Source: Harriotta raleighana (Eukaryota). From it: DNA of 64,000 bases. Within the stretch, counting starts at the first letter, position 1; each line of letters begins with the position of its first letter. Made by a program: the position numbers and the translations under genes. The stretch covers positions 3,925,557 through 3,989,556 of the forward strand of contig JBNZDD010013696.1 of assembly GCA_050575255.1 (NCBI GenBank). Reading direction: 5' to 3'. Below are positions 2,646-39,059 of this stretch, piece after piece. Under the pieces are notes generated by a model. The model saw only the letters and a program-made list of their open reading frames with translations. It searched no databases and had not been told where the DNA came from.

Positions 2646-2659
2646 AAATAATCAGGTAT

Positions 2660-2930: not shown

Positions 2931-4810
2931 ATCAGACTGTCAATATAGACTGTCCATAAACAATTTACAGCAGTCAATTCAATATATTAAAAAAAGCAGA
3001 CTTGCAGATAGGATACCCTTTGCAGACATTGAAGGCTGACTTTAAAAACCTAATTCAGCCTTATTTAGGATGTCTTGAGTTAGGCACAGCCTGTCCTCAG
3101 CATATAATAGCATCTGCATGCAATTTGGTTGCTGCCATTGCCTGCAAAATACACATTGCTACCTTTGATGGTAAACCCTGTGAAGCGTTTTGAGGTGTCA
3201 CCCTGAAGTGAAAAATGCTATAATTAAAGGCAAGGATTATTATTATTCTGATTATTGTTATCCTTGCAGCGCAGAATTAGACATCAAATGTGTGTCAAAC
3301 ACCTAACGTGTTAAACAAACCTCCCGTTTGGCTTTTTCCAGTAATTTGACGCGCCAAACGCAGGTGATCAACAAAGCTGGTTGTACTGCGGACAGAAAAT
3401 AGTGCGATGGAAGCCGGATTTCTGTCTTATTCCATGTTAAAGTTGTAAAATATTCGGCATGGATGGAATCTTAAGTGGAGCACTGAGAAACATTTGCATC
3501 TAGTCTGCTGTACATAGAAGCTAGTAGGGGAATCTCCCTCTTTATCGTATTTGAGTCATATAGGGAGAGCATTAAATTACACGATGTTCTTTCTATCTAG
3601 TACTTCAATACCACAATTTTTGCATACTTCAGAATTGCACAGCTGGAAATTTTGAAGCAGTTTTCTGAAGGCAGCAGATTTGTTTTTAGAGAAAAAAAAC
3701 AACAAAAAAAACACACACACCGGAACTGCTTACTCCAGTCCAAAATAAAGCTTGTTGGAGTTTTACCAGGAGAAACGGTGAGATCATAAAACAGCAGCTG
3801 AACATTAGATAAATGGTTTCAAACAGATTGGACCATTTTTATCACTCTGTGTGGGGAGAACATTTTCTGTTCTTATCAATGTAACAGTTTTGTTGTCCAT
3901 TTTTTTCTCAAGCCACTGCCCTGTCCTCTAAATACAGTTCAGCCAAAATAAACTCAAATCAGTTCCCAGCAAACACATTTGCTTGTCTCAACTTCCACTC
4001 TTGCTCCTATTTAAGTACTTGAAAAGTTTTTGAGCTCAGAAAAGGAACTTTTTCTCCCCCTTTCTCTCCCCTTTTCTCTCTCTTGTGCTTTCTCAGTTGA
4101 CGTCTGCAGATATTAGCCAACCAGGAAGTCCACATTTATATACATGCAAATGTAAATAGTTTTGTGTGTTTTTTCTCTCTGCCACTGGCCAAAGATTCAT
4201 GAATCATTTCTGGGTGTGGGTTAATATTTATATTTATTTTAATGTGGAGAGGAAAGTAAACATAGCTAACTACAGAGGGAAAGGGCCAGTATTGTCCCAT
4301 GAAAGGGTCTCTATTTAGCTGACTGTTTTATGGTAGTAATTTACATTAGTGACTGTCATTTCACCAGGAAGCTTTAGCATACACTTCATCTGAGGTCTAA
4401 AAAGTGACACATGCCAACATTCATAGTCTCTCTTTATGTCAATTCCACATTTTTATAGCCTTTTATTTAAACCACATTTCATGAGGCTGCATTAGAGCAT
4501 ATTTGAATATTTCATTTCCTATTAATTATGCACTGTGACCCATGCTGTCATTATGAGAAAGAGAGTGACCTATCTAATGTAACAGTCTGCAAATAGAATT
4601 GCTGAACATTGCTTGCGATAGGGTGGGATGTGTGTGTGTGTTGGGAGTAGAATCCTGAACTGTATTGACAATGTAACCAGGTGTGGTCAGTCTTCTGTTG
4701 TGATGTCCATTAAACGATAGAAATAAATTTCAGAAAGCAAGCACGAACGAGATTTTGCTAAACTGCCAAGCTGAGCATGAAGGCATGCTTAGTGACAGTG
4801 ACCTACATGG

Positions 4811-5038
4811 NNNNNNNNNNNNNNNNNNNNNNNNNNNNNNNNNNNNNNNNNNNNNNNNNNNNNNNNNNNNNNNNNNNNNNNNNNNNNNNNNNNNNNNNNN
4901 NNNNNNNNNNNNNNNNNNNNNNNNNNNNNNNNNNNNNNNNNNNNNNNNNNNNNNNNNNNNNNNNNNNNNNNNNNNNNNNNNNNNNNNNNNNNNNNNNNNN
5001 NNNNNNNNNNNNNNNNNNNNNNNNNNNNNNNNNNNNNN
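4811..5038. other. Assembly gap
   Basis: 228 N. Confidence 1.
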
Positions 5039-5657
5039 CTAGACCATTTTATATAAATCATGAAATATGCTGTCTGCTGGCAAGGTACTTATTTAGATTA
5101 GTTATAAACGTGCAGAAAAAGGGAACATCTTTGCAGTATAAAATAATCATGCATAATTATATTCATAATTCAAGCCTGTGACAGATTCCATCTTTCTTAT
5201 TCTTGTTGTCCTTTGCCTTCATTCTGGCTTCATTTGATTTCTGTTATCTTGATGACATAATTAACTGTTAAAGCTCAGAAAATAAAGAGACCTTTGAGAA
5301 GGAAAAGGTTGTTGCTTTTTTTTAATGGCACCAAAAGCTTTACCCGCAATACATATTCGGTCGCAATTTTCAGCAGCAAAAATAATTTCTTGTTTTGTGG
5401 AATTATACAAAAAAAGGTACCTTTTTTTTTCTCTCCACAGCCTGTAATCTATTTACACTTCAATGCCAATTTCAGCATCAGAGCTGTTCCTATTTGGCTT
5501 CTAACAATTCTCATTTGTGGCAGAAATGTAACTTTGTTTTCAAATAAAATCCAATCGCTGCAAGTTTTCAATCTCGGGAAAGAAATGTCACTGTTTTCCG
5601 TGCTATGGCGGAGACGTGTTGTGATCTGAAACTCATGCTTTTATCTCCCCTTCTCAG

Positions 5658-5745
5658 ACATCTGAACAATGAGCATGCACTTGATGACCGAAGTACAGCA
5701 CAGTGTCGAGTACAGATGCAGGTTGTACAGCAGCTGGAACTTCAG
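5658..5745 (+). CDS. FOXP1: FOXP1 coding exon (exon 13 equivalent): end of zinc finger and start of leucine zipper
   Basis: ttctcag acceptor, gtaagt donor. 88 nt; [29 protein letters not shown]. Phase 2 matches the previous exon (AA+A = Lys). Confidence 0.97.
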
Positions 5746-7936
5746 GTAAGTTTCTCCGCATCNCCCCCCCCCCCCCCCCCCCCCCCATTTGAAATATGAT
5801 CTGTTTACCCAGTCATCCACCCCAGTGTACACACAATCACAGCTCCATCTTGATTTTGGAGGTAACATTTGCTTAATGACTAACAGCAAAACAGAGAGAC
5901 ACATTTATGTATGCTGACATGGTGCAGCTGTACAGCTCTGACTGTCTCTGTTTTAGTGTGTTTTTTTTCTCAAATCTCTTGTCTGAATCTGTCTGTGTTT
6001 TACCAAAATCTCTTGTCTTATTAGTTGACAGTGGAATCTGAAGACTTTTCTCCAGTGTAGTAGAACCATGGGACATTTGTTGTTTTGTGTGTGTGCTTGT
6101 GTAGTTTTACACACACCCTGTTTCTGGGCATGTTTTTCATGTGTCGTGTGTAGAGTTAAAACTGACTGATATTCCACTATTTAATTTACCTGTTTGTCAT
6201 CCGTGTCTCTGCTGCGGTCCCCAGCTTGTTGCAGATATCAGTTACTGGTTTACTGTTGCCAAGATTCAATGTATAGCAGTAGCTTCCAAACTTTGAATAG
6301 TGGCATCCCCCTAACTGAGGAACGTTTTAGTTGTGCTGCCCCCTCCTTCGCACTCGGCTCCACACGCTCGGGTCCTCGGCTCCACACACACTTGGGGGCT
6401 CAAGACTCTAAAGCTCCTCGCAATCCCAGCCAACAGTACACGTCCCCCAAGGGAGGCGCCTCACACAGTTTAGAAACCGCTGATGTATAGCTCCCTCTCA
6501 GTTTTCAACAAACAAAAGCAAGGGAACACCGTCAGAATGTACAGTTATCTCAGGTTTAATAGTGCAATTGTAAAGCATCAAAGTGACTAGCAGTATTATC
6601 CCATTGTACATCAATTCACTTGGGCTGTTGTAGCTGGGACATACTAGTCTCCTGATTGGATTCCAATACCACCAGCTCGATGTTGGCAATCAGACTTCAT
6701 GGGAATGGAGCGGTGGGATAGAGAATGGTTAGTCAGTGGCAAGCAATGGGAGACAGATGAAGTTTACTTTCCTGCATATGGGACCTGTTGTGTAACCTTA
6801 TTGCACGCAGATGATCAAAAATGTCCCACAGTTGATGAGATCCGGTTAACAACCTGGAAACCTTTGTGTGTGTGCAAAACCCAAACGCTTTTCACTTTAT
6901 TGATTCAATATGCTTTAATTACGCCTATGGCTTTCAGTTCAAGCAGGTACATTTGGTGTACTTTCAGATTCTCGGCGTTAGCACATTTTTACGTGACCCA
7001 GTTAGGACTGGTGGAACCAACCTATGAAAGTCTGGTCATAAGCAATTTTGAGCTGTTGTTAATGTAAAACGCACGCACGCATACTGAAATAACCGACGAG
7101 CAAGGCGACACTTTTAAGTGACCCGTAAATATGTGAAAATAGTGTTTCCAGCAATCCTCTCAGTCACCAGCTCAAGTCAAGTGCTATAGTATAAGTCTAG
7201 TTCTTGTGGTCAGTCAGTAGTAACACATCCATATGCAATAGTCCATTTAATCAATTCTCTTCATGATATGGTTGGAATACTGTAGAGCAGTTGCAGTGTC
7301 AACCTCATGCATAAACAGAAAACTTGTGTGTATGTTTCTGAATAAACTCAAAATAGTTCAAGCACACACAGTCAGTCGGAATATGGAAAGGCCGCAATGA
7401 AATCTGATTGTTTTCACAACCAATAATAAGTTGCTTTTAATATGAAGATCAAACACACAGAAAACCTTGCATGGATTCCGATAGTAATACCAGAACGGCT
7501 GTTGAATCATTTCTGTTCTGATCAGTGGTGGAAACACAATGGCATCTGAAAACAGTTGAAACGTTTTGCTCAGCCACGCACCGTAACCTGATTGCTTTGT
7601 TAGTCGACTCAAAGATTTGCCTTTTTTTAAAAAAACAAAGTGTGAACTTTATACTGGCATTTTCTGTGTGATTGTCTGTTAGTCACCCTTGCATTCTGTG
7701 TCCTCTGGTATAAAGCCAAGGTAATCTTCCATGGATGCCAGGGACTCCACACAGTTTTGCGGAACTCTGATCCACTCTTTCATCTTTGTTAAACACTGTT
7801 CAGTGCACTTTTTTTTAATCGGGTATTATCTTTCCATATTTAGTATTTTGTTGACAGTATACGTAAATTGATCCGACACTTCAAATATTTCTCAGTATCA
7901 TAGCCTTGATGAGAAAATGAAAATGTAACACCCGAA

Positions 7937-8052
7937 AATAATAATAATAATCCTTGAATTTGATATAGCTTCTTATCACGTCTTCGAGACGTCTCAAAGC
8001 GCCTCACAGAATATACTGTGAAGTGAATTGACTGTATGTTTTGTGGGTGAAT
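7937..8052 (-). mobile_element. SINE 3' tail fragment
   Basis: (aat)n ccttgaatttgatatagc...gagacgtctcaaagcgcctcacagaatatactg, matching the tail of the full-length copies. Confidence 0.8.
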
Positions 8053-8288
8053 ATATTAATCATGAGTTTTCTTTTCCCCTTTTCTACAATTCATTTTCTG
8101 TGTGTTTTTTAAGTATAACATTGGGAACATTGCTTTGGTAATGACATTTGGTGTCTTAAGTACCCGATTTACGCTTTGATGCAAAGTTTCTGTCTATGTG
8201 TGCCCCAATAATGATAAATGCCTTAGTTCGCAATTATTTTGGATTGTTGTGGTTTTGCTTCGGAAGCTAAAATGTATTATTTTTGCAG

Positions 8289-8372
8289 CTTGCGAAAGAC
8301 AAAGAGCGCCTGCAAGCTATGATGACACACCTGCATGTGAAGTCAACTGAACCAAAACATACCCCTCAGCCT
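8289..8372 (+). CDS. FOXP1: FOXP1 coding exon (exon 14 equivalent): leucine zipper
   Basis: ttttgcag acceptor, gtaagt donor. 84 nt; [32 protein letters not shown]1-type wording. Read directly from the sequence; not in the ORF track. Confidence 0.97.
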
Positions 8373-11008
8373 GTAAGTAGTTATCTGTGGAATAGGATGA
8401 TAAATGTTTAGAAGCAACAGCAGCTTGTTGACTTGCAGTAGAGCTCATGTTCTTCGTTCCATTTTGTTTTCTACCTTCTGTGCACCTTTGAACCAACCCT
8501 CTAGCTGATTAGATCTAAATTTTGACCATGAGTTTTATTCGATTGGATCTCTTATGCGCATTGGCTTCCCCATGGTGGCAGGCAGAGACATAGCCTCATC
8601 TTATTTAAGAACAAAAAAAAATCCGTCAATTTGTTCATAGGCTGGCTACACTGGCGAATCATGTCACCACTGTGGGTGGGTTTACATTGTTAACTAACTC
8701 ATTGAAGTGGCAAATGTTGGGACTGCAGAGGTGGGTCATTGAGCTCCCAGTTCAACTTTCAACTTTATCAATATTCAAACCTACTTATCTTCTTGATCAA
8801 GTTGCCTGGACTGTGAGATGAAGCAATGCAACAGTTCTGTCACTCTGGGTGAAGGGAAATATAATGCGATGCGCCTAAGCCCACTCTTTGAAGTATACGT
8901 GTTAGCTCCTGACAGAGAGCTGTGCTGTTGGCAGCCACAGAGAAGTCTGTGGCCCACACCAGTCTGTCCTCCCAGCTAAAATGGATCACAAGTTCAAGCA
9001 GGGAATGGAGTGAGAAATTAAATATCCAGCAAGAATGAAAATACAATTTTTCATATTTTTTTCTAAGATGTTTCTGATGCCTAAAATCAAGGGGCTGTGT
9101 TTGGCCATTACCAAGAATAAGGTAAAGAAAACAAAATTTGTAACCTTATAGAGTAGTGTGCACACACCCGCATGCAGACACACACTTCACAGAGCCAAAT
9201 CTATGAATAATATGCATCCCTCCACCTCTCTCTCTCTCTTTCTCAAACACACACACATGCGCGCACACACACAGTAAGCAAAATGAACCACTGTTGCCTT
9301 GTTTAGAGCAGGGGAAAAAACTAAAAGCCAGAAAGACCCCATAGGGATTTACAGCAGAGTTCAATAAACTTCTAATAATGTTCATACAAAAAGGTCATTC
9401 TACTTAGTGTTAACAGGTGGCAGATTACATCATAATCATTATTCTGCTACAGTCCTGTAATTCTTTAAATGAACTAATCAATTATAGTGGAAAGATTACC
9501 TTATTTCTTGCTTGAAACGTGTATTATTCAGTCTCTGAAGGTACCCAACCAACAGCAGTATCACTCAACATCAATATGGGAGAATTAATTGAGCATGACC
9601 AGGCCTTTAGTTGCTACTTGCAACTTCAGTCAATATGTGTTGATGCAGGATAATGGTAAGGTAGAGGCTCATCTATACAGACTAGCTGTCTATTAAGGAA
9701 CCGTGTGTATAGAAAAAAAATGCATACCTTGCCTTAATCTGATAAGTAGAAAAATATTTCTGTATGTTGGCAATCACCGATTTAATAATGCTCGAAAATA
9801 GGCTAAAATCATAAATATGCTGTGAAATTTGATTTTCAGTGTGTAAATACAATGCCTACAAGCGCATGTTTCATTATTACAACTTGAATGTATTGGAGAA
9901 ATATTAGGCAGAAAGCAGCCGGAAAATAATTGAGATATATAGTTTTGATTTTCTTATCCTTTTAGTTTCTCCTCAAACATTTTGCGTTTTTTGAATGCGT
10001 TTGCACTTTGTACCATTTCAAGAATAATACTTTTTAAAAATGGTTTACTTGCGAACATAACTCTGTGTCCAGAGTCATCAACTTTGAGTTCCAGGAACTG
10101 ACTTGCCTTGTTAAATTTGCATCTAGAATTGTTTCTTATCCGCATTCTGCATAATACTTCACAATGTGTAATAGCCCTGCTTACCTTTTGCCTAGAATTT
10201 TGTTCTTGCCAATTTGCAGCACAGAAAAATAGGATTATTGGACATTTTAGTAGAGACTACAAATGCACATTTAAACTGTGAACGGAAAGCTGTAAACTGG
10301 CCCCTGTATTTTTCAAGGCTCTAAATACACCATTTCCTTTTTCTGTATGGTCCCCATTTAACTTTTCCTTATTTGTTTCGGATTTGAAAGCATTTTTTTC
10401 ATTCAATAGATTTTTCTCCTCAATTGTTGTAATTGCGTGCTAATGGAACAATTCAAGGCCAGAGCTATTAGTCAAACTACTCAATTGTCAAATATTCCTT
10501 GATGTAAGAAAGTTAGAGAGAATATGATTATTTACCGGGTGATTTGTCTGTTGTCTCCAAAACGGAACCTTTCTATGACCTACAAGGACAGCAGATAAAG
10601 AGAGAAGAAGCTTCAAACAATGTATTTGCAAAAAGGCTAGCCAATCAGAAAATGCATTTTTATTAAAGATGTTATGGCTTCCTTATGCCCTTTCCGAATT
10701 CACCTTATTGAAACAAAGTACGCGTTTAAAGACTGATATTACCATGGAAGTGAAGCACTTTCAATCTCAATGTACGCTCCCTGGATAGCCCATGCAAGAG
10801 GAGATATTGGTAATTGTGTGACTGGAGAAGCAGTCCCATGGGGTGCTACCAATTTGGGTTTCCCAGTTGGAAATCGTGCCGTATCTAAATGGTATTCATC
10901 ATAGCAAAGGATGACATTCATTCTACTTGTAGTCACTCCCACTCCCGAAATGCAAATATATAAAGTTCAGGACCAGGCGGGACTTGAATCACAAACATGA
11001 TGTTTCCA

Positions 11009-11202
11009 TTTCAAGTGTCAACATCAGGGATCCAGGAATGGAGAGCCTGTTGAACCTTGTGGAGATAAATGAGTGAGAGAACAGAGATGAACCCACGAAA
11101 TATACAGTCAGTTGACTTTACAGTATGTTCTGTGAAGCGTTCTGAGCATCTTGAAGACGTGATAAGGTGCCTGTATCAAATGCAAATTCAAGGATTATTA
11201 TT
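11009..11202 (+). mobile_element. Retroelement 3' fragment with the shared SINE tail but a different upstream segment
   Basis: ggaatggagagcctgttga...aaatgagtgagagaacaga segment also present at 23977-24184. Confidence 0.7.
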
Positions 11203-11505
11203 CTAAACTAGTCTCTTGAATCTGCCTCGCCATTCATGCAAATCCGAATGTCTCATCTCAGGTAGCTGCTTTGACATCTGTTCAGTATTTGCCTTGAATG
11301 CAGAGATTACGTTAGCCCTCCTGTGCATCGTTGGGTTCATTGGCAGAGAGATGTGTGTGGTCTGGATGAGGTGTTAAACTGAGGAATGTTTGATTGTTCC
11401 TCTGGTGGATCCTATGGCACTTATCGAGAAGGGAGGTTTTCCCAATTTTCTGCTCCCCAATCCTCCAGATGAATTGATCATTCACTTCATCAGTGAATGT
11501 AGCTC

Positions 11506-11814
11506 AGTCCTGTAGTTCAATGGTTAGAGCACTTGCCTTACAAACGTGAGACCTATATTTCGAATCCAGCCAGGTCAGGGCAAAACCTTGGGCAAGTTTC
11601 CTTACTAAACATGCCTAATAATAATCTGTTCATAAAATCCTATAATAAATGGTCATTTTCAATCCACGACTGTTTTTGGGACACTGCTGTGCACAATTGG
11701 CTGCCACATTTCACCCACAAATATTCAGTCAATTCAATTTACAGTATATTCTGTGAAGCACTTTGATACGTCTAGAAGACATATCAAATGCAAGGATTGT
11801 TAATATTTATTATT
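11506..11814 (+). mobile_element. tRNA-derived SINE, near full length
   Basis: A-box-like tagttcaatgg, degenerate B box ttcgaatcc, aaccttgggcaagtttccttact body, tcaaatgcaaggatt tail. Confidence 0.85.
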
Positions 11815-13308
11815 GTTTTCCATCCCTGGCCATTTTATCTCAGTCTAATCGTGTAGGAGATCACCAGCTTTCCGTTAGTTACTTGATAGCCCCCTCCAAA
11901 AGAGGGAGTGGGAATGATAGTCGAAGAGAGAAGTCGCTTAATAAAAGGAAACTCAACATTACCTAAACCAATCTCTGTAATAGCTGCTGGGATGTGTGGG
12001 AGGTCAGTCTGGCTGGCTCTAAAATAACCAGAATGGAAACTGTTGTTCTCCTGTGCTCAGAGAACATTATCAAACAACAATATTTGTGGCCTGTTAGCCT
12101 GTCCACAGTCATTTGCATCCTCTGTTGATGTCTTTCTGTTAATATAATTAAAGCAAATAGAAAGCTAACTCCTAGACACAGGTTCCCTCCCTATAATGAG
12201 TACTACTAGGGATTTGTTTCAAGTATAAATTTGAGAGAGTTATGCAAACCTCTGTCTTAGTACCCTAGTGAATGTAATATTTCTATTGCGAAAGAATAGC
12301 CACTTTAAATGAAGAAAAGGTGGAATATTCACCCTGATGTTCAGTATCCCTCATTCTTCCAATTAAGTTATAATAATAATCCTTGTAATTGATATAGCGA
12401 ATCATCAGAGTCCTGAAAGCACTTCACAGAATATACTGTTGAGTCAATTTACTATCTATTTTGTGGGTGCAATGTGGCAACCAATTATTCAACCAATACA
12501 ACTAACTGTTCAGCCTCTCTCGAATCTGCAAATGTTTTGAGTTCTGTTCAAGGAATGAGTCATTTAAACTTTTTCAATGATGTTCTGCAACAGTTGTGAA
12601 AACATTTGTATCGCTGAATGACGCAGTTGTGCACTTTCCACCAAGTGCCGCAGCAACTGACAAGTGGGTAGATGCTCCGTGAACCAAACGCATTGTCATT
12701 CTGAGACTTGTAGACCCCTAGTAGTTTATTTACCTTGCATGTTCCTCACCTAGACTTGATGCCAACCACTTGGTGAGAGAGGCACCACAGGACAGAACTG
12801 ATGAACAAAGCAGAGGAGGGAGGGAGAGAAACCCCATCTCTTCCAATATTTTTTAATTGATTCCATCAGCCAAGAATTACTAATGTCACTGAGGCAGTTA
12901 AAGCATTCCCACCTTTTTTTAAATTATGTTTTATAAGAACCTTTTACTGGGGAGATTAACAACATAGCGGGGAAAAATGGTGGATGGAGATCAGAAAATG
13001 TTGAGCCTCAATGTGACTGGTAGATTAGTGAACACAACCTCAAAGGAAAACTTGGAACAAAATCAGTTTAAAATTACAAAGACTATTTAATACTCATTAA
13101 ACTGACAGCAGCACTGTAACAGGTCAGTTGTTGCTAATGGACATTGAGCACTTAAGTGCTTCAAAATGTCTGTATTTTATTCTCAGGGGTTGTTTTTGCC
13201 TTCACCGATATTCCTAATTTTGCTTCTCACCTACAGTTACTCCTATATGTTTAGCTCAAATTCAGTTACTTTAGATTATGGCTTCAGGTGGGGGAAAGGG
13301 TGTGACTA

Positions 13309-13616
13309 TCCCTGGGTTCGATTCCCGGGCTGGGTGAAACGTTGGGCAACTTTCCGTACTCCACACATGCCTCTGTTTACCTAGCAGTAAATTGGAACCC
13401 TTTGTTAGTCGAGTGGTAATAATCTCTTTTTAAAAACATAATAATAATACTGTAATTTGGTCACTCATTCCATGGCAGTTTGTGGGACACTTCTGTGCAC
13501 AATTGGCTGCAGTGTTGCATCCACATAATTAGGCAATTCACTTTATGGAAGTGCTGTGAAGCGCTTTGGGATATCTCAAAGATGTGATGAGGCACTATAT
13601 CAATTGTAATGCTATT
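13309..13616 (+). mobile_element. tRNA-derived SINE, longer variant
   Basis: B box gggttcgattccc, internal ctctgtttacctagcagtaaat...gttagtcga segment (also in 54305-54691), shared tail. Confidence 0.75.
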
Positions 13617-15869
13617 GGTAGCATACCCCCACATTACTCTCTTCTTTCATGACACGTAGCAAATTAAGAGTAGTCTTACACATGGAAAGTTCAAAATGTT
13701 CTTTTAGTCCACCTCCCTTAATTTCCAATTTAATTATGTCAATTCTTTTGAGGATAACATAAGCTGCTGATTACAAATATTTTTGGCAAACCCAGGACTC
13801 TTCATTTTAAAAAGGGCTCGTCCATCTGTGCTGATTGGTAGTTTCAATAGTAGACTTACACGGGGTGCAAACAAGATAATTATGATCATTGTCTCTTTTT
13901 GCTTAACCCTGTCATTTGTGCCTCAAGCAAGAAAAAAAAAATCATTTCTAAGCACTGGTTTACACAATCCGTCCAGGAAAAGTCTATAACTAACTGCTTC
14001 TCGTCGCATTTTGCAGTTGCTTGCGGTCATCTCAACATCACATCTGGATAAAGTTGTGAAGGATATGTAGTTTCCTTGGAAAGTGAAAGAAAATTAAGCT
14101 AGGAGAGGTCAGGTAGATTTCTCTCTATTTAAAAAAAAGCTTCTATTACTATTTACCAGGTTGAGCAGTTCAGTGTTAATAAGGTCAGAAAGCAAAGTCT
14201 GCTGGCGAGGACATGTTAAGTACTAAATCTGGAAATAATGTGTTGCAGTGTCCAGGAGAAACCTAGCTATGGAAAGGAGATAAGTATGCCAGCAGTGTAC
14301 ATTTGTGAAACCATTTGCACAAAGAAAGATGCCATGACAGACTAACTGTATAAATTTGATAAAATTAAAATGCATTTTGTTCTTCACCATCATCCGCATC
14401 ATATCAAGAGAATTTAGTGCCCAAACCAATCAGGCTGGCAAATACACAGTCGACGAGACACAATGCCTCTTACTGCAAGTAGGGTTAGAGAATATTGATG
14501 AGATGCATTACTGATCAGAGGTAAACAAAAATCCCATGCACTGGGCAATAGAAGCATTCACATGTAGATTCACACTATCGCATTGAATGATGCAAGTGAG
14601 CGTATTTCAAAGCAAATTAGTCTTTCCCGTTTTCTATGTGGGCAAATAAATGGCTGCTGCACTAACAGGCAAAATCAGATCTCAGTCTTGGGGAAAACCC
14701 AAAGGTAAATTTTGCTTGGGACAGAGGGAAAGCTGAACCTCAGATGTTTTTTGCTCTGAAATCCCAAAGCTTTATCCCAGGGCAGCTGGAGCAGGGTATA
14801 TTTCCATCACTCACGCCAATTGTAGTGATTCTCTGACATATCAGCAGAGACAACCATCTGTATTTTTTCCAAGCAGCTTCCAGACTCCTGACCTTCCTGT
14901 ATCTGGAAGGGATACTCTCTTCTTTCCTAAGCCCTTCATGGATGTTGGTTGGGGATGTGTTAAAAGTCGCTGGATGCAAAAGATCACAATGATTACACAG
15001 AAAATCTTCAGAGTAGGCTATTTCCAATAGCAAGTGAAAAGCGGTTACCTTTTGATGCCATTATGTATGTATGTATATAAGTATGTCTGTGTGTATCCAA
15101 GCCATCTGGAGAACATTGACTGAAGTCCAGTTTGGCCAAGAGTTCCACCAATTCCATTTTCTTACACCTCAGTGGTAAATGACTGAAATCTCATCAGATT
15201 ATGTTTCACGAAGGGAGTATATAAAATTGCACTTCCTCATAAGACCTTTGCACTTTTTTTTACTCGAATCTTCACATTCTTACATTTCCCTTTGGAACCA
15301 CGGCTCCCTGGATGTAAAATAATATTGAAATCAATTTCAGCTCCACTTGATTTAATTAGAAAGGCTCGAGAGTTCTCGCTCCTTGTTTTCAACACTCCTT
15401 ACCTTGAATTGGGTTCTGGGTTTGCCTTTCAATTGCTACCCAAGATGTTATTTGAGCTCTCATTTGTTTGGATGTATTTATCCAGCGTTTCTTTCCTACC
15501 ACACCCAGGCCAGAAGAGAAATAGAAGCTCATTCATATTCATACCCATTTCAACATTTTGGTTTTACAGAGACAATATCCCTCAGTTTTTGCAGTGTTTT
15601 GCGTGGAAATTGCATTTCGAAATGTCAATTTATATGTGAGAAACAAATAAACAATAATATTAATCCTTGCCTTGGGTATAGCACATGAAATTGAAATTCC
15701 TTGAAGCCCTTCACAGGAAATTGTCAAGTTTCACAAGTGTATATTTGTAGTCAAATGTAGCAATCAGTTTGTACACAGCAAGGTCCATTCAAACATCCTA
15801 CAAACAGACGAGGTGAAACTCATTCCAAATAAGTGTCATGGGATCTCGCAGCAAGATCTTGATTTGAGT

Positions 15870-16176
15870 ATTAAAAAACATTTTTGCATGCGATATCGAA
15901 CTTTCGACAACAGGAGGACATCCCAAAATGTTTTGCAGCATTTACTGTAAACTGTAGTGACTTTGTCTTTTATAGTTGAACAAGGCAGCCAATAGAGTGA
16001 TCGTTTTAGCATCCATCTGTACAGGGAGATGAGACCTTGGTTTAATATCTCTTCTGAAGGACAGCACCTCAGATAATTCAGTACTACAGCAGCACTGCAT
16101 TAAGAGTGTTGCTGAGATGTGGGGTTTGCATCCACAAACTTTAGATTCAGAGGCAAGATTCGTGCCAACTCAGCCA
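15870..16176 (-). mobile_element. Degenerate Deu-domain SINE including tRNA-like head
   Basis: ccttggtttaatatctcttctgaaggacagcacctc...gattcagaggcaagattcgtgccaactcagcca. Confidence 0.6.
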
Positions 16177-16503
16177 GGCTAAATAAGTAGCTTTGGCACT
16201 CATAATGCAACTGAAGTTGAAAATTCTTGAAAATAACATTTGGTGTAAGACTGTTTAGCCTTAGTGGCTCCAGGAGATTAGAAAATCTAATGTAGGGAAA
16301 CAATAGTCACTCAGTTTGAGGATTTCCATTGTCAGAAACGTAGATTGTTTGGACTATCTCACATCAATTGTGTTAATCTTTTTTAAGATACAATTCATGT
16401 TTGAAAAGTAGTTTCTTTTTTAAGACAGCAGTGTTTATTCCGAGCCTTTATTTTACTGAACGAGGATTAGAACTAGCAGCCTCAACACTTAAATTTTATT
16501 GTA

Positions 16504-17092
16504 AATAAAGCTATTCGGCTATCCGGCACCCATGGGACCTGGACAGTGGCGGTTGAACGGTTTTCCGGTTGAACGTTTATTTAAAAAAATAATTTTTAAA
16601 TTGTTTTTAAATTTTTAAAATTATTTTAACACATATTAATATATTTTAACATATATTAATAGACTAAATAATAACAGATAATAACAACCTTGTATGGATA
16701 TTGCAAATGTTGTACAATGTTCCATATAAATGTTAAACAATACTATAAAAATAATAGACGAAATACACTAACAACAGCTACTATAATAATAGAATATTGT
16801 ATTAGTACTTTATTATTTATGCTTAACTTCGCAATGGCGGTCCCTACCCACGGTGGAAAAAAAAAAGGCAGTATCGCGACTTTTAAAAGGAGCAGGAGCG
16901 AGTTTAGACTCAACTCAACGGCCAGCCGAGTACCTGCACCAGTATTCGTGTGCGACAATCAATTCATTAAATGCGTCATCGCTATGCTGCCAGATAATGC
17001 TTCCGGTTTATTGAATTGGGACTTTTTTTTTGCGGTTCCGGTTCAGCGGGTTTTCCGTTTCATCGAGTCATGGATAAACGGGCTTTACTGTA
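16504..17092. mobile_element. Non-autonomous pogo/Tigger-like DNA transposon (MITE), left end degenerate
   Basis: Right end ggataaacgggctttactg followed by TA; left end taaag...ctatccggc; repeated ggttttccg motifs near both ends; AT-rich interior and locally high CpG. Confidence 0.55.
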
Positions 17093-19957
17093 TCTACATT
17101 TCAGTTGCATTTGATGTCAAAAGGCTGCATCAGTCTTTGTAAATATGAATGCATAAAACTTGGCTTTTTCCCAGTAACGATTCACAGTATTGATAGAGCC
17201 CACACATTGTTTTGCTGCAAATATTTTCCTCTGGAAAAATTGAATTTACACAGCAATTTCAACACAACTGTACCGATAGTTAACTTGCAGTCCACAGTGA
17301 ATGATCGTGGGGTCACTTGCCTGGTAACTTGGTAATTATGTTTCTATGGCGAACAGAGAATCCCGTGCAATTGATAAATATTAATATTGTCTTATTATCA
17401 AAGAGAAGTGTGCTCTGATGATTAATCATTGTGCTGAGTAACAGATGTCAGAGTGTGAGCATACTGTTTATTAGTAGAATTATGCATCATTAAGTGCCTA
17501 CCTTTAAATCAAGCTGAGAATACCAATTTTTGTTGTTAAGGGACTTCAGTTTGCCAATTAGCATTTTATTCAATCTGGCAGTTTACAGACAGCCCAGGAA
17601 TAGCACCGTGCGTTTTGTAAGGTGCTCCCATTACACACCGTTCTGTGTTGCAATTTCTCATTTCATATGGTTTAATAATAAAAAATAAAAAAATCTATAC
17701 CAATGTTTTTAAAAAAAATCTTGCTGGGGATTTATGAACAGTTTAAGGCACTTATAAACCTGTTCAACAGCACCTCGCAGGTGATCAATATAAAATTAAT
17801 ATGTTTGGCCTATAGAGCTGCTTCTTCCATAGGAAGCAATGTGTGTAGTGTCTGAATGGATAATTCGTTTTCGCAGTAAGTTTTGTAAACTAACGATGAA
17901 GAATGTGACCTGGAGATGCCTCCCTCAGCCAAGCTTTAAAATGTGTAACTGATGGAGAGTGCTGTAAAGGCAACAGAAGCAGAAAGCTCTTTTTTTAAAA
18001 CAATAATAAATACCCAAATTTGTAGGTTTTGCGAAACTCATTCCCAACTTGAAACCTACAATTTTTTTTAATTAAGAAAAAATGGGTTGTGTTTTTAGAT
18101 GGAAAGAACTGCATTTAGGGTGACATACAATGGAATATTAATCTCAAAAGCTGTGCCTTAAACCTTGTTAGAGGTAGAACACAGCGCCTCTGCCAAGAAT
18201 CTTGAAAATAGAAAAAAAGAATAGGCGGGGCTCCAGATTTCTGGCTGCACTACAGTGACTTTTCTTTTAACCTTGGCATTTAACCAGCATTTAGTTGAAG
18301 TGCAAAACAAGTGTCCTTAACCATTGTTAAAACATTTTTTGGATGATATATTTAAACATTCGTCAAAAAGGTACACTGAAGTTGTTTTTGTGTGAAACCG
18401 TCATCGGTGATGATTTTTTTTTTATTCGTGGCTTTTTATTTTAATATCCCGATAAGTTTCGGAAAGTTTACCCATCACATTATCTTGACAGTGGTTTACA
18501 TTCTCTTCCACTGGGGAATGCCGGGATTGTTAAAAATCATTCCAACTTTTGGTTTTATTTAACGCCTGCATTTAAAAACGAACCTTATGAAGCATATTTA
18601 TTGCTGGCTCTTTGTAATCGTGAATCCCTAGTTTATATAATTACATCAAACTATTTTTTGTCTTAATATTGGACAAAGAACAAGGGATCCGAAAATTCTT
18701 ATGCCTCCAAGTGTTGCTAGTTTGACGTGTGCTCTAGCACAGCTGAATTCCCCTGTTAGTGCACATCAGGATTGTCAGTGCACTTCGTGACATGAGGAAT
18801 TTTTTTGGCCCAAGGTTTTCTGATATTTTTATACTTGTAAGTCTGTGCATTAAAGCCAAAGAGATGTAAAAAGGAGTCCAAATAAGTTGGAAATGAATCC
18901 TAAACTCAACCTTGGCTTTTTGTTTTTGCCTTTGCGATTCTTCACTTGTGTTTGGAAAGGTGATTTAACAGGATGGAAGCTGTGATGGAATTTTTAATTG
19001 TGTACCGTTTTAAAGTAAGCAAGTGCGTAACCTCCAGATAATGACTATTAGCAGGACCCTGGTAATTGGAGAACTTGTGAACAAGGAGGGACAGAAGGGT
19101 GAGGTGTTAAACATGGGTGATATACTTTTCACCTGAACTCTTTTGCTTCCACCGCCCGTGCCAGGCTGAACCTCATCAGCAGTAATTGATGCCGTTATCC
19201 CCAAAAATTGAAAAGTGACACTTCCAAAGCAATTGACAGAGATGACATTCCATTAATTTGTTAACGCAATTCGCAAGTGATTGTCACAGATGAAACACCT
19301 TTTCCCCCACGATGCCTTTGTTGGTGCTTTCCTTCCTGCTGAATTTGCAGTCAGATTTAATTTGGAAACTCTGTTCCTTCGGCAAATTAGCAATTAGAAC
19401 AATTTTGTGGAAATATGTATATGTGTCATTAGTTTTCCTCCAAATTAATAGCAGGAGCAGAGGTCAGCCTGAAATTTTCCAGTTGACTGGAGTGGCTCTG
19501 TTGAGATTTGGAGCTTGTTTGGAATGGCTGCAGCTGCAAGCCAGAATCGAGCAGCTGCTTACAGCCACTCTAGCTTCCGAGCTCCACTTTAATTAGTTTA
19601 CCTCGCATAGCCATTATTGCTAATATCGCTGCCTCCCCCTCAAAAAAATTACTGTTTCGAAAAAAAAAATCTTCAGACATCTTGTGTCACTACAGGCTGA
19701 TGATGGGGGTCAGTTTGATGCAGCGTTTAATCATTAGATCACCTCCATAAGCATCTCCTAATTAGAGTCCTTTCAATACAATTTCATCTTGTAATTAGCG
19801 GAGATTGTCTGCTTCCTCTGTAGCTTATTAGTGCCAGCGCAGTGGTGGGTGTGAATCACACTGTTATTTGTCAAGCCTGTTAAAGCTTTCCCTTTTCTCC
19901 TGTCTCTTGTTTTTTTTCCACCATTACCCAAATCTCACCCCCAATCCATCTTTGCAG

Positions 19958-20159
19958 CTGAACCTAGTGTCGAGCGTCACATTGTCAAAGACGGCATCTG
20001 AAGCATCTCCGCAGAGCTTACCTCACACCCCCACCACACCGACAACCCCCATTACCCCTGTCACACAGGGACCTTCTGTCATAACCCCAACCAGCATGCA
20101 CAGCATGGGGCCCATCCGGAGGAGATACCCAGACAAATACAATGTGCCAATTTCCTCAG
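19958..20159 (+). CDS. FOXP1: FOXP1 coding exon (exon 15 equivalent): CtBP-binding PLNLV motif and S/T/P-rich linker
   Basis: tttgcag acceptor, gtagga donor. 202 nt; [67 protein letters not shown]. Confidence 0.96.
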
Positions 20160-20285
20160 GTAGGACAGTTTGTGCCGCAAGTGCTCTGTGCCGTTGGCTG
20201 TTTGGTCACCGTTGCTTTTCGGGAGTTATTTTAGTGAAAGATTATCCGTCAAGATAAAAAAAAAAAATTGGAAATCTTGTGGTAA

Positions 20286-20477
<192 letters not shown>

Positions 20478-20820
20478 TAGTCTCTGACAGAACAATTCAG
20501 ATCCTCAGATATTTATTAAATAAGAGCACAAAGGTTGTCAAACTCTAACGACTTAAAATTCACAAAATCTAACGTGTAAGTTGATAAATGACAAGTGGTA
20601 TATATCGTGTTACCATGACTGATGAAAACACTACAGCACCAAGTGTTTGGCGTCTTGATTTGCTTTTGCTAGTCTTCGATTTTTACAGCAGTGCAGAATT
20701 ATAAAGACATCCATTCAGCATGTAGCAGGAAATAATCACAGAGGTCTTATTTTTGCTTTAACACATATTTTTAAAATCTTCATTTTAAACTACATAATTA
20801 AACTACAAGAATATAATTGA

Positions 20821-21042
<222 letters not shown>

Positions 21043-21961
21043 TAAATATGAAAGTGTCCTCATCAGTTCTTTTTGCTTTTACTCTCAGCAGGCCTGGCCA
21101 TTCTGCGTTCCATGGTAAACAAGACATTGTATCTGACTTGCCAAATTTAGTCATCAGATTTTGGCTGTTTGGTTAATCTGCTGTGATTCTTAATTCAGTT
21201 ACTTTTGCACCATATTAAACGGTAAAGGAGATTCTTATGGATATTACATTTCCGCCTTGTGCCTTTCATTCAGCTTCACATCCCAAGAATAGGTCACTAG
21301 CCGTATGTATGAAATACGAGCTGCTTCTTTTGTCGTCGGAAGCCAATGCTGCAAAAATGTTCAGGCGTGATCCGCTAATTAGATGAAAGAATGGCTGTTT
21401 ATCTTGCAATGCAAACAGCCGTTGCAGTCTCTGTCCTTGTGCTTCAAATCCTCTCCACACACCATAGTTCATCCTGCAGTCTGGTTGCCACAAGTGCTGT
21501 GGCTGTGCCCGCTCAGCTGAAACCTGTAGAATAAAGGCAGCAGATATCATCATGTAGTTGGAGGACACAGAGTTTGTTTATGTGGACAAAGCCTTCATTC
21601 ATCTCCCTCCATGAGCACAACACTCTCGTTTGCCAAGCTGCAGAGCACCCAGGTTCAATAAAAAAGAGCACTTTGTTGAGTTTAAATCTTTCCGCCAACA
21701 TTATAACTATTCTGGGGCAATCTCTATACGGGACACAAGAGTTAGTGAGAAGAAATCACAGGGGCAGTGTCAATGACTGTTTGACGCTTCAATGTATTAA
21801 AGCAATGTGATGCTGCTTTTTTTCCCCAAAAAAATCTCATCTGCAGTGCTTCTCAAATGAACTCCGTAACATGAAAGCAGTTTGGCTTATGTTTTATTTA
21901 CCTATATTGCTGTCAGTCATCATGAGGACATGCCTACATNAAATTGGAAATCTTGTGGTAA

Positions 21962-22153
<192 letters not shown>

Positions 22154-22498
22154 TAGTCTCTGACAGAACAATTCAGATCCTCAGATATTTATTAAATAAG
22201 AGCACAAAGGTTGTCAAACTCTAACGACTTAAAATTCACAAAATCTAACGTGTAAGTTGATAAATGACAAGTGGTATATATCGTGTTACCATGACTGATG
22301 AAAACACTACAGCACCAAGTGTTTGGCGTCTTGATTTGCTTTTGCTAGTCTTCGATTTTTACAGCAGTGCAGAATTATAAAGACATCCATTCAGCATGTA
22401 GCAGGAAATAATCACATAGAGGTCTTATTTTTGCTTTAACACATATTTTTAAAATCTTCATTTTAAACTACATAATTAAACTACAAGAATATAATTGA

Positions 22499-22720
<222 letters not shown>

Positions 22721-23976
22721 TAAATATGAAAGTGTCCTCATCAGTTCTTTTTGCTTTTACTCTCAGCAGGCCTGTCCATTCTGCGTTCCATGGTAAACAA
22801 GACATTGTATCTGACTTGCCAAATTTAGTCATCAGATTTTGGCTGTTTGGTTAATCTGCTGTGATTCTTAATTCAGTTACTTTTGCACCATATTAAACGG
22901 TAAAGGAGATTCTTATGGATATTACATTTCCGCCTTGTGCCTTTCATTCAGCTTCACATCCCAAGAATAGGTCACTAGCCGTATGTATGAAATACGAGCT
23001 GCTTCTTTTGTCGTCGGAAGCCAATGCTGCAAAAATGTTCAGGCGTGATCCGCTAATTAGATGAAAGAATGGCTGTTTATCTTGCAATGCAAACAGCCGT
23101 TGCAGTCTCTGTCCTTGTGCTTCAAATCCTCTCCACACACCATAGTTCATCCTGCAGTCTGGTTGCCACAAGTGCTGTGGCTGTGCCCGCTCAGCTGAAA
23201 CCTGTAGAATAAAGGCAGCAGATATCATCATGTAGTTGGAGGACACAGAGTTTGTTTATGTGGACAAAGCCTTCATTCATCTCCCTCCATGAGCACAACA
23301 CTCTCGTTTGCCAAGCTGCAGAGCACCCAGGTTCAATAAAAAAGAGCACTTTGTTGAGTTTAAATCTTTCCGCCAACATTATAACTATTCTGGGGCAATC
23401 TCTATACGGGACACAAGAGTTAGTGAGAAGAAATCACAGGGGCAGTGTCAATGACTGTTTGACGCTTCAATGTATTAAAGCAATGTGATGCTGCTTTTTT
23501 TCCCCAAAAAAATCTCATCTGCAGTGCTTCTCAAATGAACTCCGTAACATGAAAGCAGTTTGGCTTATGTTTTATTTACCTATATTGCTGTCAGTCATCA
23601 TGAGGACATGCCTACATGCATAAGCCACTGTCAGAGAGAGCCCATTCTCTCATCTACCTGCATTGGTCACTTGACTGGTGCAATGATGCGCAAATGTTTG
23701 TGAGCATCTCCGAAACGGAACCAAATTAAAAGATCATTAATTTGTCTCTACTTTTCACCTTTTTTTAAAATTTAAGATTGCATCCACCATACAAATCTTT
23801 ACTGGTAACATGTCAGTCTTTCCAAACTCAGTTTACATTTGGCTGGAAAAATAGCCTTAAAAGTCTTATCGTTAAATGGCCTGTATGGTCACAAGCTTTA
23901 ATAGAATAGCTACCTGGTCATCCTTCATCAAGATATAGTTGTCCCTTTACACTGCTTTCTGATTACTTCTACTGGG

Positions 23977-26389: not shown

Positions 26390-26594
26390 CCTCCTAGCAT
26401 AGCTAGCTCCCGTGTAGTTTAACCTACAGCTTGTGGCTGCTTGCAGGTGATGGAGGGGAGGGTGTCACTTGGGTACATCCGTGCTGTCTAGGAAAATCCG
26501 GGGCATGGAAAGCAAATGCTTCATCACAGCATCCTTTCCTTTCCCCACATTTTCCAGTCTGTGTATTCCATGGTGCTCAACCCACGTTCTTTCC

Positions 26595-26804
26595 ATCTGC
26601 TTGCCTGGTGTTTTGCGTCATGTGCTTCTGCTTGCAGGCTACACATATTAACCCCACAAACCATTTGCTTATTTCATTTTTTTTCTCCTTTCCCCTTGCC
26701 TACCCCTTTGTGTGTGATTTTTGTTTTTGTTCCGTCCCCATCCCCATTTTCCCTTGTTTGTCTTTCCATCGCATCTGCTTGACCTGCTGCTGCTATAAAC
26801 CCAG
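26595..26804 (+). promoter_or_regulatory. Splicing-regulatory region upstream of exon 18b (YGCY cluster, long pyrimidine tract, AG-free zone)
   Basis: About ten TGCT/TGCC motifs, including ctgctgctgct just before the acceptor; no AG dinucleotide from 26638 to 26802. Confidence 0.7.
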
Positions 26805-26974
26805 GGTGCCATACGCACCAATTTGTCACTGCATAAGTGCTTTATCAGAGTAGAGGATGAGTTTGGGTCCTTTTGGACTGTTGATGATGAAGAATTTAAA
26901 CGTGGCCGCCACATTCAACGAGGCCGTCCTCGAAAATACTACCCTGATGAAAGCTTTGATGAACAATTTGCACA
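26805..26974 (+). CDS. FOXP1: Alternative mutually exclusive forkhead exon equivalent to FOXP1-ES exon 18b
   Basis: cccag acceptor, gtaaga donor. 170 nt, phase 0 to 2, no stops; [56 protein letters not shown](H). Not translated in the correct frame in the ORF track. Confidence 0.95.
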
Positions 26975-28689
26975 GTAAGAGCTTTTGCTTGCTACTATTT
27001 TGCTTCTGCTTCGCATTGCATGGTTACCATCTGTCAAGACCTCTCCTGATTATTATTAATGTAAGCTAAGTAAGAATTGTTTTCTACAATGTATTTATTG
27101 TGTGTCTTCTCTTTCACTCAGTTTAAACTTGCCAACGTCCATCCCTTCCTGTTGGATTTTGCCCAAATTTGAAATCATCCCAAACTTTAATGAATGATCT
27201 TACAAATTCTGCCGACAGAATATTTTTCAAGAACTGTAGTTGGTTTAAGGAACGGTTCAGGTGACAACAAGAAACTTTGTTCCCATTGTGTAGTTAGACC
27301 ACCTTGTCACTTCTCCCTATTCTGGCTTAGAGGAGGATTACACAAGGTTCTAATGTGTCATGTCAAAGGGATTTCACACAAGAAACTATTGGAATGTGTG
27401 CAGTATATTAAGATGGCAAGAGTGTTCAGATGACAAGAATTTGCCTGGTGGGTTTGCACAGTTGTGGTGGAAATGCCACCTCGAATAGATACAAAGAGGA
27501 ATGTTAGCACATGTCCACTTAGACGAAGCAAAGTAAACCTAGAATAAAAGGCAGTATAAGCAGATTCATAAGAGAGATTACAAAAAGCTAGGAATGTGTA
27601 TGCACCACCCAATTGCTGGTGTGAAAACTAAAAATATACAATATCTCCGAGCATCCACAAGGTTCCCACCCAGAGAGAAGCAGTTACATCTCACTCCATG
27701 TCCTTCCCAGTCGTGTACAACACCCCAAAGTTCTCTGTAACATATAATGCACCAGCTAGTCACTATGGGAACCTGACAATTCATCATGAACATTAGGGCC
27801 AGTACATCACTTTCAGCTAAACCTGAAGCATTCAGCAACTCCATTCATCAAACCGAGAACTTTTCCCGTGTCAAACATGCTCAGAGCATTGAGCTATGAT
27901 GCCCCAGGGCTCTCTGTCAACAGCCCAGTAAAATGACACCACACCTGCATACGTTCACAATTCTGTTACAATCGGGTCAATGTGAGACTCTCTATACTAT
28001 TCACCACTTTCATTAAAGTGCAGAGCAGGTTTGGTTAGAGCAGCGTTTACACGCCGCCAAGTAATTGTGGAAGCAAAGCACGATTTTCTGCAACTCTATA
28101 AAGACTCTCTCTCTCAACACACTACCTAACGAGGTATTTTACACTTATTTTCAATGCAAATGTGAGGAGAGGTGGGAATTTGAAAACGAGGGATAATTTG
28201 TACACTCTGGCATGTGTGTTTTTTTTCTTTATTTACTCTGGTCTTCCATGCATAAGCTTCCAATTCAATTCCCTGACCCTCCCATAGCTTGGCTGAATTT
28301 CATAAGATTTGATCCCCACTTATGTCCCGTTTATCTTCTCATAAATCATGACACAAATAGCGAGGAGGGTAAAAAAAAAAAAAAGTCAATAGCTATAAAA
28401 AGATGGGAACGCCAAAATCACCTTTTTAACTTAGGGGAGAGATTGGTGAACGATCGTTCACTTTGACTTATTTGAATAATTCTGAAATGTCAAACTGTCC
28501 TTTCCTTTATTCCAACTACAAACAGAAAGAATTCTTCAATGAAACAAATCTGAACGGCACCGCTGGTGTTTAATCCATTATAAAAACTCAGCGGAACCCT
28601 CTTCCTATCCTATCATGCTAATGTTTTATCTTATAATAGTGATAATGATAATAATAATAATACAATTTAATTCCTGTTTCCCTGATGCC

Positions 28690-30534: not shown

Positions 30535-30604
30535 CAACCCTTCTATCATAAAAAATATACAGACCAGCCTTGGATATGGCTCACCACTCAGTGCTGCTTT
30601 ACAG
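30535..30604 (+). CDS. FOXP1: FOXP1 coding exon (exon 19 equivalent)
   Basis: cctacacgcag acceptor, gtaaga donor. 70 nt, phase 2 to 0; NPSIIKNIQTSLGYGSPLSAALQ. Confidence 0.93.
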
Positions 30605-32902: not shown

Positions 32903-33069
32903 GCTTCAATGGCTGAAAATAACATACCTCTGTACACTACTGCTTCCATGGGACATCCCACTATAGCTACCATGGTGAGTAGTATCCATGAGGAGCTAAA
33001 TGGTGCAGTGGAGCATGCAAATAGCAACGAGAGTGACAGCAGTCCAGGACGCTCTCCACTGCAAACTAT
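32903..33069 (+). CDS. FOXP1: FOXP1 coding exon (exon 20 equivalent)
   Basis: ttatcacag acceptor, gtgagt donor. 167 nt; [55 protein letters not shown]. Confidence 0.96.
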
Positions 33070-38039: not shown

Positions 38040-38787
38040 GCTCCCTCCTTCTCTTCTCAGTTAAGTCTTGTGGGGAGAAAAAATAATTACCGAAGCTTCC
38101 TCCAATATACGAATAATAATAATAATAATCCCTGCATTTGATATAGCGCCTTATCACATCTTCGACACGCCTCTAAACTCGTCCACAGAATATTCGATAA
38201 CATGTAGTGTGTGCAGCAGTGTCCCACAAACAGTCGTGGATTGAGTGGCCAAATTATTATTTCAAAGAAATTTTGAAGGGATTATTTTACCCACGAAAAG
38301 NGCTCCCTCCTTCTCTTCTCAGTTAAGTCTTGTGGGGAGAAAAAATAATTATCGAAGCTTCCTCCAATATACGAATAATAATCCCTGCATTTGATATAGC
38401 GCCTTATCACATCTTCGACACGCCTCTAAACTCGTCCACAGAATATTCGATAACATGTAGTGTGTGCAGCAGTGTCCCACAAACAGTCGTGGATTGAGTG
38501 GCCAAATTATTATTTCAAAGAAATTTTGAAGGGATTATTTTACCCACGAAAAGTGACCGGACAATTTAATAAGAACCGGGGCTCCTACTCACCGCTGGGT
38601 ATATAGAGGCTTGTGGAGTAAGGAAACTCGCCCAACATGTCGCCCTGCCCGGGAATCGAACCCAGGTCCNGTGACCGGACAATTTAATAAGAACCGGGGC
38701 TCCTACTCACCGCTGGGTATCTAGAGGCTTGTGGAGTAAGGAAACTCACCCAACATGTCGCCCTGCCCGGGAATCGAACCCAGGTCC
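38040..38787. repeat. Two short tandem duplications, each joined by a single N (38040-38300 / 38302-38553 and 38553-38669 / 38671-38787)
   Basis: Copies differ by (AAT)n length and a few substitutions; N at 38301 and 38670. Confidence 0.92.
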
Positions 38788-38911: not shown

Positions 38912-39059
38912 GTATCCTATCCACGTTAAGGAGGAACCTGTGGATGCAGAAGATATGGAGGAGGGTCCACTTTCCTTGGTGACAACAGAAAACCATAGTC
39001 CAGAGCTGGACAATCACAAAGAATATGAAGAGGACCAAGGGAATGAAGACATGGAATGA
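38912..39059 (+). CDS. FOXP1: FOXP1 last coding exon (exon 21 equivalent) with VKEE SUMO consensus and stop codon
   Basis: ccgttgtag acceptor; (AT+G) [49 protein letters not shown], then TGA at 39057-39059. The spliced path through exon 18b is 1213 nt and in frame throughout. Confidence 0.96.

Follow-up and report, generated by a model that had tools for sequence, protein, structure and literature searches.

An intact alternative forkhead exon in FOXP1 of Harriotta raleighana and a broken copy of it in FOXP2

Introduction

FOXP1-ES, the isoform made with human exon 18b or mouse exon 16b, is said to have been reported by Gabut and colleagues in 2011. An altered DNA motif and a role in ES cells are described for this isoform, which prefers CGATACAA-like over GTAAACAA motifs (passages of PMC11701043), and exon 18b is under MBNL control in mammals (passages of PMC11701043 and PMC4978528). 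In passages of Santos et al. (2011, PMC3002244), the pair formed by exon A and the alternative exon B is placed at the bilaterian ancestor, and exon B is recorded in mouse, human and zebrafish FoxP1. [quoted passage not shown] Its main text has no match for the words shark, Callorhinchus or cartilaginous.

Here we describe the FOXP1 gene in a 64,000-nucleotide stretch of Harriotta raleighana DNA (the window). The window exon resembles exon 18b/16b of FOXP1-ES in gene, position, phase and peptide (93% identity to primates) and in the Gly and Thr of its recognition helix, and differs in that its host is a cartilaginous fish. Like isoform B of Santos et al., it is a tandem exon following exon A and carries the His-to-Thr change. 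Its EDDFGS and RGRPRKY motifs are common to isoform B of insects, crustaceans, a snail and a nemertean, and the spacing from A to B is similar to that in many FoxP loci. Isoform X6 of the catshark Scyliorhinus torazame (XP_072328365.1) has the same exon-B peptide (56/56 residues) and the same junctions in the protein, whereas the other exons are 79-91% identical, which indicates that the window belongs to another cartilaginous fish lineage.

In our account, which we hold to be highly probable, FOXP1 exon B is intact and likely spliced in place of exon A, the pair is a bilaterian inheritance, and the copy of exon B in FOXP2 is dead, probably through separate losses. The FOXP2 fossil would be a modest addition beyond the known FOXP1 exon.

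Results

The FOXP1 gene in the window

A tblastn comparison of catshark FOXP1 with the window gave eight exon groups, in order, at 79-100% identity. The exons are as follows.

About 299-412, + strand: zinc finger exon (tblastn)
About 5656-5751 and about 8277-8378, + strand: zipper exons (tblastn)
About 19958-20159, + strand: linker exon (tblastn); the upstream FOXP1 exons span 299-20159
20386-20462, + strand: exon in which the forkhead domain begins; repeated at about 22062-22138
20926-21027, + strand: constant forkhead exon (AILESP..ATWK), copy 1, ending in phase 0 (ATWK, then GT)
22604-22705, + strand: constant forkhead exon, copy 2, inside a duplicated stretch; its donor is the nearest to exons A and B
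26805-26974, + strand: exon B, the alternative forkhead exon (18b in human), 170 nt with an open frame from phase 0 to phase 2
30535-30604, + strand: exon 19 (NPSIIKNIQTSLGYGSPLSAALQ), phase 2 to 0, accepting exon B in frame; ACGCAG before, GTAAGA after
32903-33069, + strand: exon 20
38913-39056, + strand: last coding exon, ends approximate, from tblastn

Among 10 named vertebrate FOXP1 proteins the catshark protein was the closest in the linker exon (90%), exon 19 (79%), exon 20 (91%) and the last exon (81%); the others reached at most 88%, 71%, 75% and 67%, respectively. Since the catshark is closest in these variable exons, the host is a cartilaginous fish, as had been suspected from the letters of the window. 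FOXP2 and FOXP4 are located elsewhere in the same genome, outside the window.

Exon B is preceded by a pyrimidine tract and CCCAG and followed by GTAAGA. Its frame 0 is open across 56 codons plus 2 nt, and the frame stays open when the exon is joined by coordinates to the exon at 30535-30604. The recognition helix has both the His-to-Thr and the Asn-to-Gly change (residues as named in passages of PMC3002244) and is identical to that of primate isoforms. The canonical exon A (NAVRHNLSLH) is not legible in the copy of the window analysed; a search of the host's own genome placed it, as a 95% match without stops, with its end about 0.45 kb upstream of exon B, and exon 19 lies downstream of exon B. 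Exon B itself matched its own genome with E 5e-34, and this value, together with the presence of exon B in 112 of the 120 protein matches listed (see below), argues that the match is not due to chance. Among the eight exons scored, it is the only one 100% identical to the catshark.

Window positions 26805-26974 are, on this comparison of sequences, an intact orthologue of FOXP1 exon 18b. The original prediction had described a 170-nt exon with AG/GT ends, running from phase 0 to phase 2 in an open frame and joining exons 17 and 19 in frame, and coordinates and translation agree with it on each of these points. Its assignment as exon 18b is upheld by the FOXP1 exon order and the catshark isoform match, and the altered helix that it proposed in place of NAVRHNLSLH is there, with the two substitutions just given.

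Distribution and age of exon B

A protein search with exon B returned 156 matches, and the figures that follow come from the 120 listed. Exon B is present in 112 of them, alone in 104 and together with exon A in 8, the latter probably being gene-model errors. The carriers among the matches listed include mammals, reptiles, a parrot, amphibians, gar, sturgeon and teleosts, and a single cartilaginous fish, the catshark, whose XP_072328365.1 is a database-annotated isoform with the order exon 17-B-19. Window exon B is 79-96% identical to most of the bony-vertebrate isoforms listed (93% for primate isoforms). Residues G1, A2, R4, T5 and N6 are invariant in 53/53 distinct exon-B peptides, with the R/H-T-N motif itself being the pattern by which the peptides were selected.

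Cluster representatives searched by profile-free HMMER yielded 491 matches. In the best 150 of the 491, B-type exons head the list, and the nine proteins looked up are from a beetle, a wasp, two flies, a barnacle, a snail, a nemertean, amphioxus and a copepod. The amphioxus exon B (protein P0198) has Tyr and not Thr at the His position (NAVRYNLSVH), and the exon B of two comparison loci (L032 and L034) has Ser, neither Asn nor Gly, at the first helix residue, so that the two base-reading positions of exon B both differ between animals. On the alignments, Asn-to-Gly looks like the only vertebrate-specific change of the exon-B helix.

Comparison loci were drawn from host DNA in metagenomes (the best 80 of 222 relatives). 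A B-type exon lies downstream of A in 29 of these 80 animal FoxP loci, many of the 80 being too short to show B. In a teleost-like FOXP1 locus (L023) the exon-B match runs for 29 codons and then breaks off; an error in the contig or a duplicate in decay may account for this.

Window exon B as such is thus the known pan-bilaterian exon in one more cartilaginous fish. The original prediction dated it to the jawed-vertebrate ancestor, which is too young: the pair is bilaterian (passages of PMC3002244) and was found again here in proteins of insects, crustaceans, a snail, a nemertean and amphioxus. As for the suggestion that use of the exon might be undescribed in this lineage, a catshark isoform with it is already annotated, and the role that was foreseen for it outside the blastocyst is already in print, for adult mouse tissues and the fly CNS (passages of PMC3002244).

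Selection on exon B and control of its splicing

Compared with the FOXP1 of a bird-like locus (L029), window exon B is identical at 153/168 nt, with pN 0.049 and pS 0.24 over 56 codons; the dN/dS near 1 that was to count against the original prediction did not occur in this comparison. Insect and mollusc copies have a conserved peptide and saturated silent sites (pS 0.76-0.85). As judged from these substitution counts, the window peptide is under purifying selection.

Silent sites in the cassette are themselves unusually conserved. The pS of exon B against L029 is the low value just given, and for exon A it is 0.32 (bird-like FOXP1 against FOXP2), as against 0.66 in constitutive exons of this genome's paralogues. 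These figures would fit an exon kept mainly as a conserved nucleotide element, acting in the control of exon-A splicing or as an enhancer and rarely translated in this lineage. We consider this very improbable, because in exon B amino-acid changes occur about one-fifth as often as silent ones, nothing has disturbed its frame, its length or either splice site, conservation of the peptide reaches insects and molluscs despite silent saturation, and spliced isoforms are annotated across vertebrates and sequenced in mouse (passages of PMC3002244). Our preferred reading remains that of an exon retained for the peptide that it encodes.

The introns on either side of exon B have the following conserved parts.

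26390-26804, + strand: readable part of the short intron between exons A and B, conserved with L029 over most of its length; 8 YGCY in the last 200 nt
26975-27106, + strand: conserved intronic block 3' of the exon-B donor; 4 YGCY in the first 100 nt

The A-B intron aligns with that of L029 at a local score of 151 (maximum of 200 shuffles, 49) and the downstream block at 67 (maximum of 200 shuffles, 44). The 8 upstream YGCY compare with a shuffled mean of 4.4 and are reached by 61 of 1000 composition-kept shuffles; against the window background, the same count is reached in 2 of 309 bins. Downstream, the count of 4 is reached by 22 of 1000 shuffles. A similar one-sided YGCY excess is found at two constitutive exons, and with base composition kept the excess around exon B appears marginal.

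Exon A is 122 nt (measured in the FOXP2 paralogue) and exon B 170 nt, and since both end at phase 2, having both in or both out shifts the frame. Transcripts with both exons or neither would be directed by the frame shift to nonsense-mediated decay, the likely guard of mutual exclusion. For the forkhead domain, exons A and B would each provide the second half. Exon B would exchange two base-reading helix residues (Asn to Gly and His to Thr) and add the RGRPRKY tail; it is likely spliced in place of exon A, and for FOXP1 made in this way a change in the DNA motif recognised is predicted. Putative splicing control, which in mammals takes the form of MBNL repression, likely resides in the conserved introns with YGCY motifs on either side. 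We infer that exon B is used in Harriotta raleighana transcripts.

A broken exon-B copy in the FOXP2 gene of this genome

When exon B was searched against the host genome, a further B-type match (E 6e-16) came up on another contig, with two TGA stops.

Genome G000, contig C13732, 12723792-12723961 (locus L002; L012:9792-9961), - strand: FOXP2 exon-B copy, ungapped 170 nt

The gene around the copy is FOXP2 by exon order and residues (best PDB match 2A07; RTF and SSDRQ marks). The copy lies on the same strand as the gene, 383 nt after exon A and 665 nt before exon 19, and is identical to FOXP1 exon B at 131/170 nt, with no gaps. It begins with the vertebrate Gly, retains the Thr and keeps the acceptor CCCAG with its pyrimidine tract. 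Its lesions are TGG to TGA at codon 24, CGA to TGA at codon 43 and GT to AT at the donor; of the features of a functional exon it thus has positional homology and an acceptor and lacks an open frame and a GT donor. The 53 FOXP1-B peptides have 40 positions with conservation of 90% or more; the copy is changed at 10 of these, 1 of the 10 also differing in window exon B. The copy has no indel, and its dN/dS is 0.47 (Fisher P 0.07).

The preserved acceptor AG and pyrimidine tract, with 7 YGCY upstream, might be taken for a poison exon, included by way of a nearby donor and leading to decay of FOXP2 mRNA. We find this scarcely credible, given that the donor reads AT, that the stops differ from those of the second FOXP2 locus described below (L020) and that 97 of 1000 shuffles equal or exceed its number of YGCY. 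The reading we follow is that of a dead exon.

Between FOXP1 exon B and the copy, pS is 0.35 overall and 0.21 over codons 1-35, while four constitutive exons of FOXP1 and FOXP2 of this genome give 0.66 (Fisher P 0.002 for 0.35 against 0.66; exon 19, with pS 0.86, is omitted from this pool). So low a silent divergence could mean that the copy is no inherited fossil and came from FOXP1 later, by gene conversion or copying in this lineage; at the 15 differences between the window and L029, moreover, it sides with the window at 8 and with L029 at 4. However, exon A is equally low in paralogue pS (0.32), so FOXP1 and FOXP2 alike hold the A/B cassette under nucleotide-level constraint. The upstream introns of FOXP1 and FOXP2 align no better than shuffles (41 vs a maximum of 46), and L020 has a FOXP2-specific 3' part at the same position. 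Conversion or copying from FOXP1 accordingly seems to us improbable; a conversion of the 5' half alone may have occurred. We retain the inherited fossil as the preferred reading.

The silent sites of exon A in loci L002, L020 and L029 show unusual conservation, with pS 0.30-0.32, between FOXP1 and FOXP2 and are saturated, with pS 0.85-0.91, against FOXP4 and the teleost-like FOXP2.

A DNA search with the FOXP2 copy matched only itself and the FOXP1 exon. The genome gave three FoxP exon-A matches, of FOXP1, FOXP2 and FOXP4 types; a FOXP3-type exon A was absent from the 36 own-genome candidates scored, so that the count of three is a lower bound. The 536-nt intron after exon A of FOXP4 held no exon-B remnant (scores of 20-21, with shuffles up to 34-36). 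No intact FOXP2-type exon B turned up in protein collections, in tests of little power (7 candidates with 2 matches, both FOXP1, and a second try with no candidate), and none of the B-type exons among the 145 newly listed of the 491 HMMER matches resembled the FOXP2 copy more closely than it did the FOXP1 exon.

A second FOXP2 locus and the timing of the loss

FOXP2-type loci made up 3 of the 80 comparison loci; the trace comparison took in L020 and L022, L021 (155 nt) and L028 (70 nt) being too short for it. L020 contains FOXP2 exons A and 19 and is from the same record set as L029, whose exon B is identical to a parrot isoform (56/56), so that L020 is probably from a bird.

Locus L020, about 1520-1840, + strand: decayed exon-B trace and flank in the FOXP2 intron, starting about 370-385 nt after exon A

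The exon alone scores 59 in L020, as compared with at most 44 in 147 tiles of real sequence, and with the 170-nt downstream flank the score is 120, as compared with at most 47 in the 147 tiles. The flank alone scores 71 (at most 41), with about 150 nt common to cartilaginous-fish FOXP2. By blastn, 29 nt match at 90% (E 2.5e-6) and read PQKYLLDEG, the FOXP2-only version of the tail (KYLLDEG). In a three-way alignment 43 columns group L020 with the FOXP2 copy, and 28 group it with FOXP1. The trace has many indels and its 5' half aligns poorly, the match being concentrated in the last third and the downstream flank. The teleost-like FOXP2 (L022) had no exon-B trace, with 10 of 200 shuffles reaching its score.

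Codon 43 is CGA in FOXP1, TGA in FOXP2 of this genome and CAA in L020, and the donor is GT, AT and GG in the same order; codon 24 is TGG in FOXP1, TGA in the FOXP2 copy and, less surely because the reading lies beside a gap, TAG in L020. Since the changes at codon 43 and the donor differ between L020 and this genome, parsimony gives the ancestor CGA, GT and TGG, that is, an unbroken exon. From these two genomes it is likely that FOXP2 kept exon B until about the split of cartilaginous and bony vertebrates, with separate losses thereafter, although an exon dead just before the split would likewise leave later lesions that are not shared. That the FOXP2 exon was a working switch of DNA specificity until after the split, and was then lost separately in both lines, we put at slightly better than even.

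The concentration of the L020 match in its last third and the flank is also what would be expected had the exon died before jawed vertebrates diversified, its 3' part and the next 150 nt being taken over as a regulatory element. FOXP1 and FOXP2 are known to have six paralogous pairs of conserved non-coding elements (passages of PMC3595034). Against such an early death, the copy in this genome is without indel and its divergence is coding-like, and its second stop and donor change are not common to L020. We regard early death as possible yet doubtful, and continue with separate losses after the split. These paralogous elements resemble the FOXP2 copy as intron sequence common since the genome duplications and differ from it in that a coding exon was the source of the FOXP2 element here (passages of PMC3595034, supplementary table 2). 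By human coordinates, none of the six pairs seems to be located at exon 18b.

The A/B pair is a bilaterian inheritance, which FOXP1 and FOXP2 would both have kept past the first vertebrate genome duplication. FOXP1 retains exon B under purifying selection; the exon of FOXP2 is dead and has left a broken copy in Harriotta raleighana and a fainter trace in the bird-like genome, the losses probably being separate and later than the cartilaginous/bony split. That a FOXP2 switch exon worked past the split and was lost separately, and that FOXP2 bearing the alternative helix is still made in a lineage alive today (sharks and rays, bichir, gar, coelacanth or lungfish, or from the FoxP2/4 genes of lampreys), is unlikely.

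The comparison suggests that Asn-to-Gly is older than the FOXP1/FOXP2 duplication. The split of FoxP1/3 from FoxP2/4 has been placed at the first genome duplication, in a phylogeny whose deep nodes its authors call unstable (passages of PMC11998571), and with that placement exon B and its Gly would predate the event. If this is right, the Asn-to-Gly of FOXP1-ES came before the two genes parted, two FoxP genes bore a switch of DNA specificity in early jawed vertebrates, and a conserved block in a FOXP2 intron is a former exon. Passages of Santos et al. (PMC3002244) report no trace of B in FoxP2, 3 or 4 and infer its degeneration, whereas here a FOXP2 remnant is visible and was apparently lost late; the visible fossil would turn an inferred loss into a dated one. 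The openly accessible literature searchable in full text, including passages of PMC3857310 and of PMC3595034 with its supplementary table 2, gave no report of an exon-B remnant in FOXP2. Passages of Hatje 2017 (PMC5740500) have no mention of FOXP, and the passages of PMC3857310 hold nothing on exon B.

Assembly joins and repeats in the window

The two forkhead exons upstream of exon A are doubled by a repeat.

20265-23617, strand not applicable: head-to-tail duplication (20265-21939 and 21941-23617; the units differ by 1 mismatch and one 2-nt gap and meet at a single N)

Its units are 1.68 kb long and 99.8% identical. A second head-to-tail duplication, at 59804-61900, has 1.05-kb units that are 100% identical, again with a single N at the join. 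Both are likely scaffolding artefacts, and the first is read in this way because a repeat of the same make recurs at 59804-61900. A real biological duplication of the constant forkhead exons was considered and rejected as a likely assembly artefact.

An inverted repeat of about 260 nt (96%) at 38040-38553, centred on a single N at 38301 and lying just 5' of the last coding exon, is possibly another assembly join. The window also has an interspersed repeat family of about 300 nt, with members 78-86% alike on both strands, at 11506-11798, 45981-46266, 47353-47617, 47759-48091, 53146-53464 and 54304-54506; by size the family appears SINE-like.
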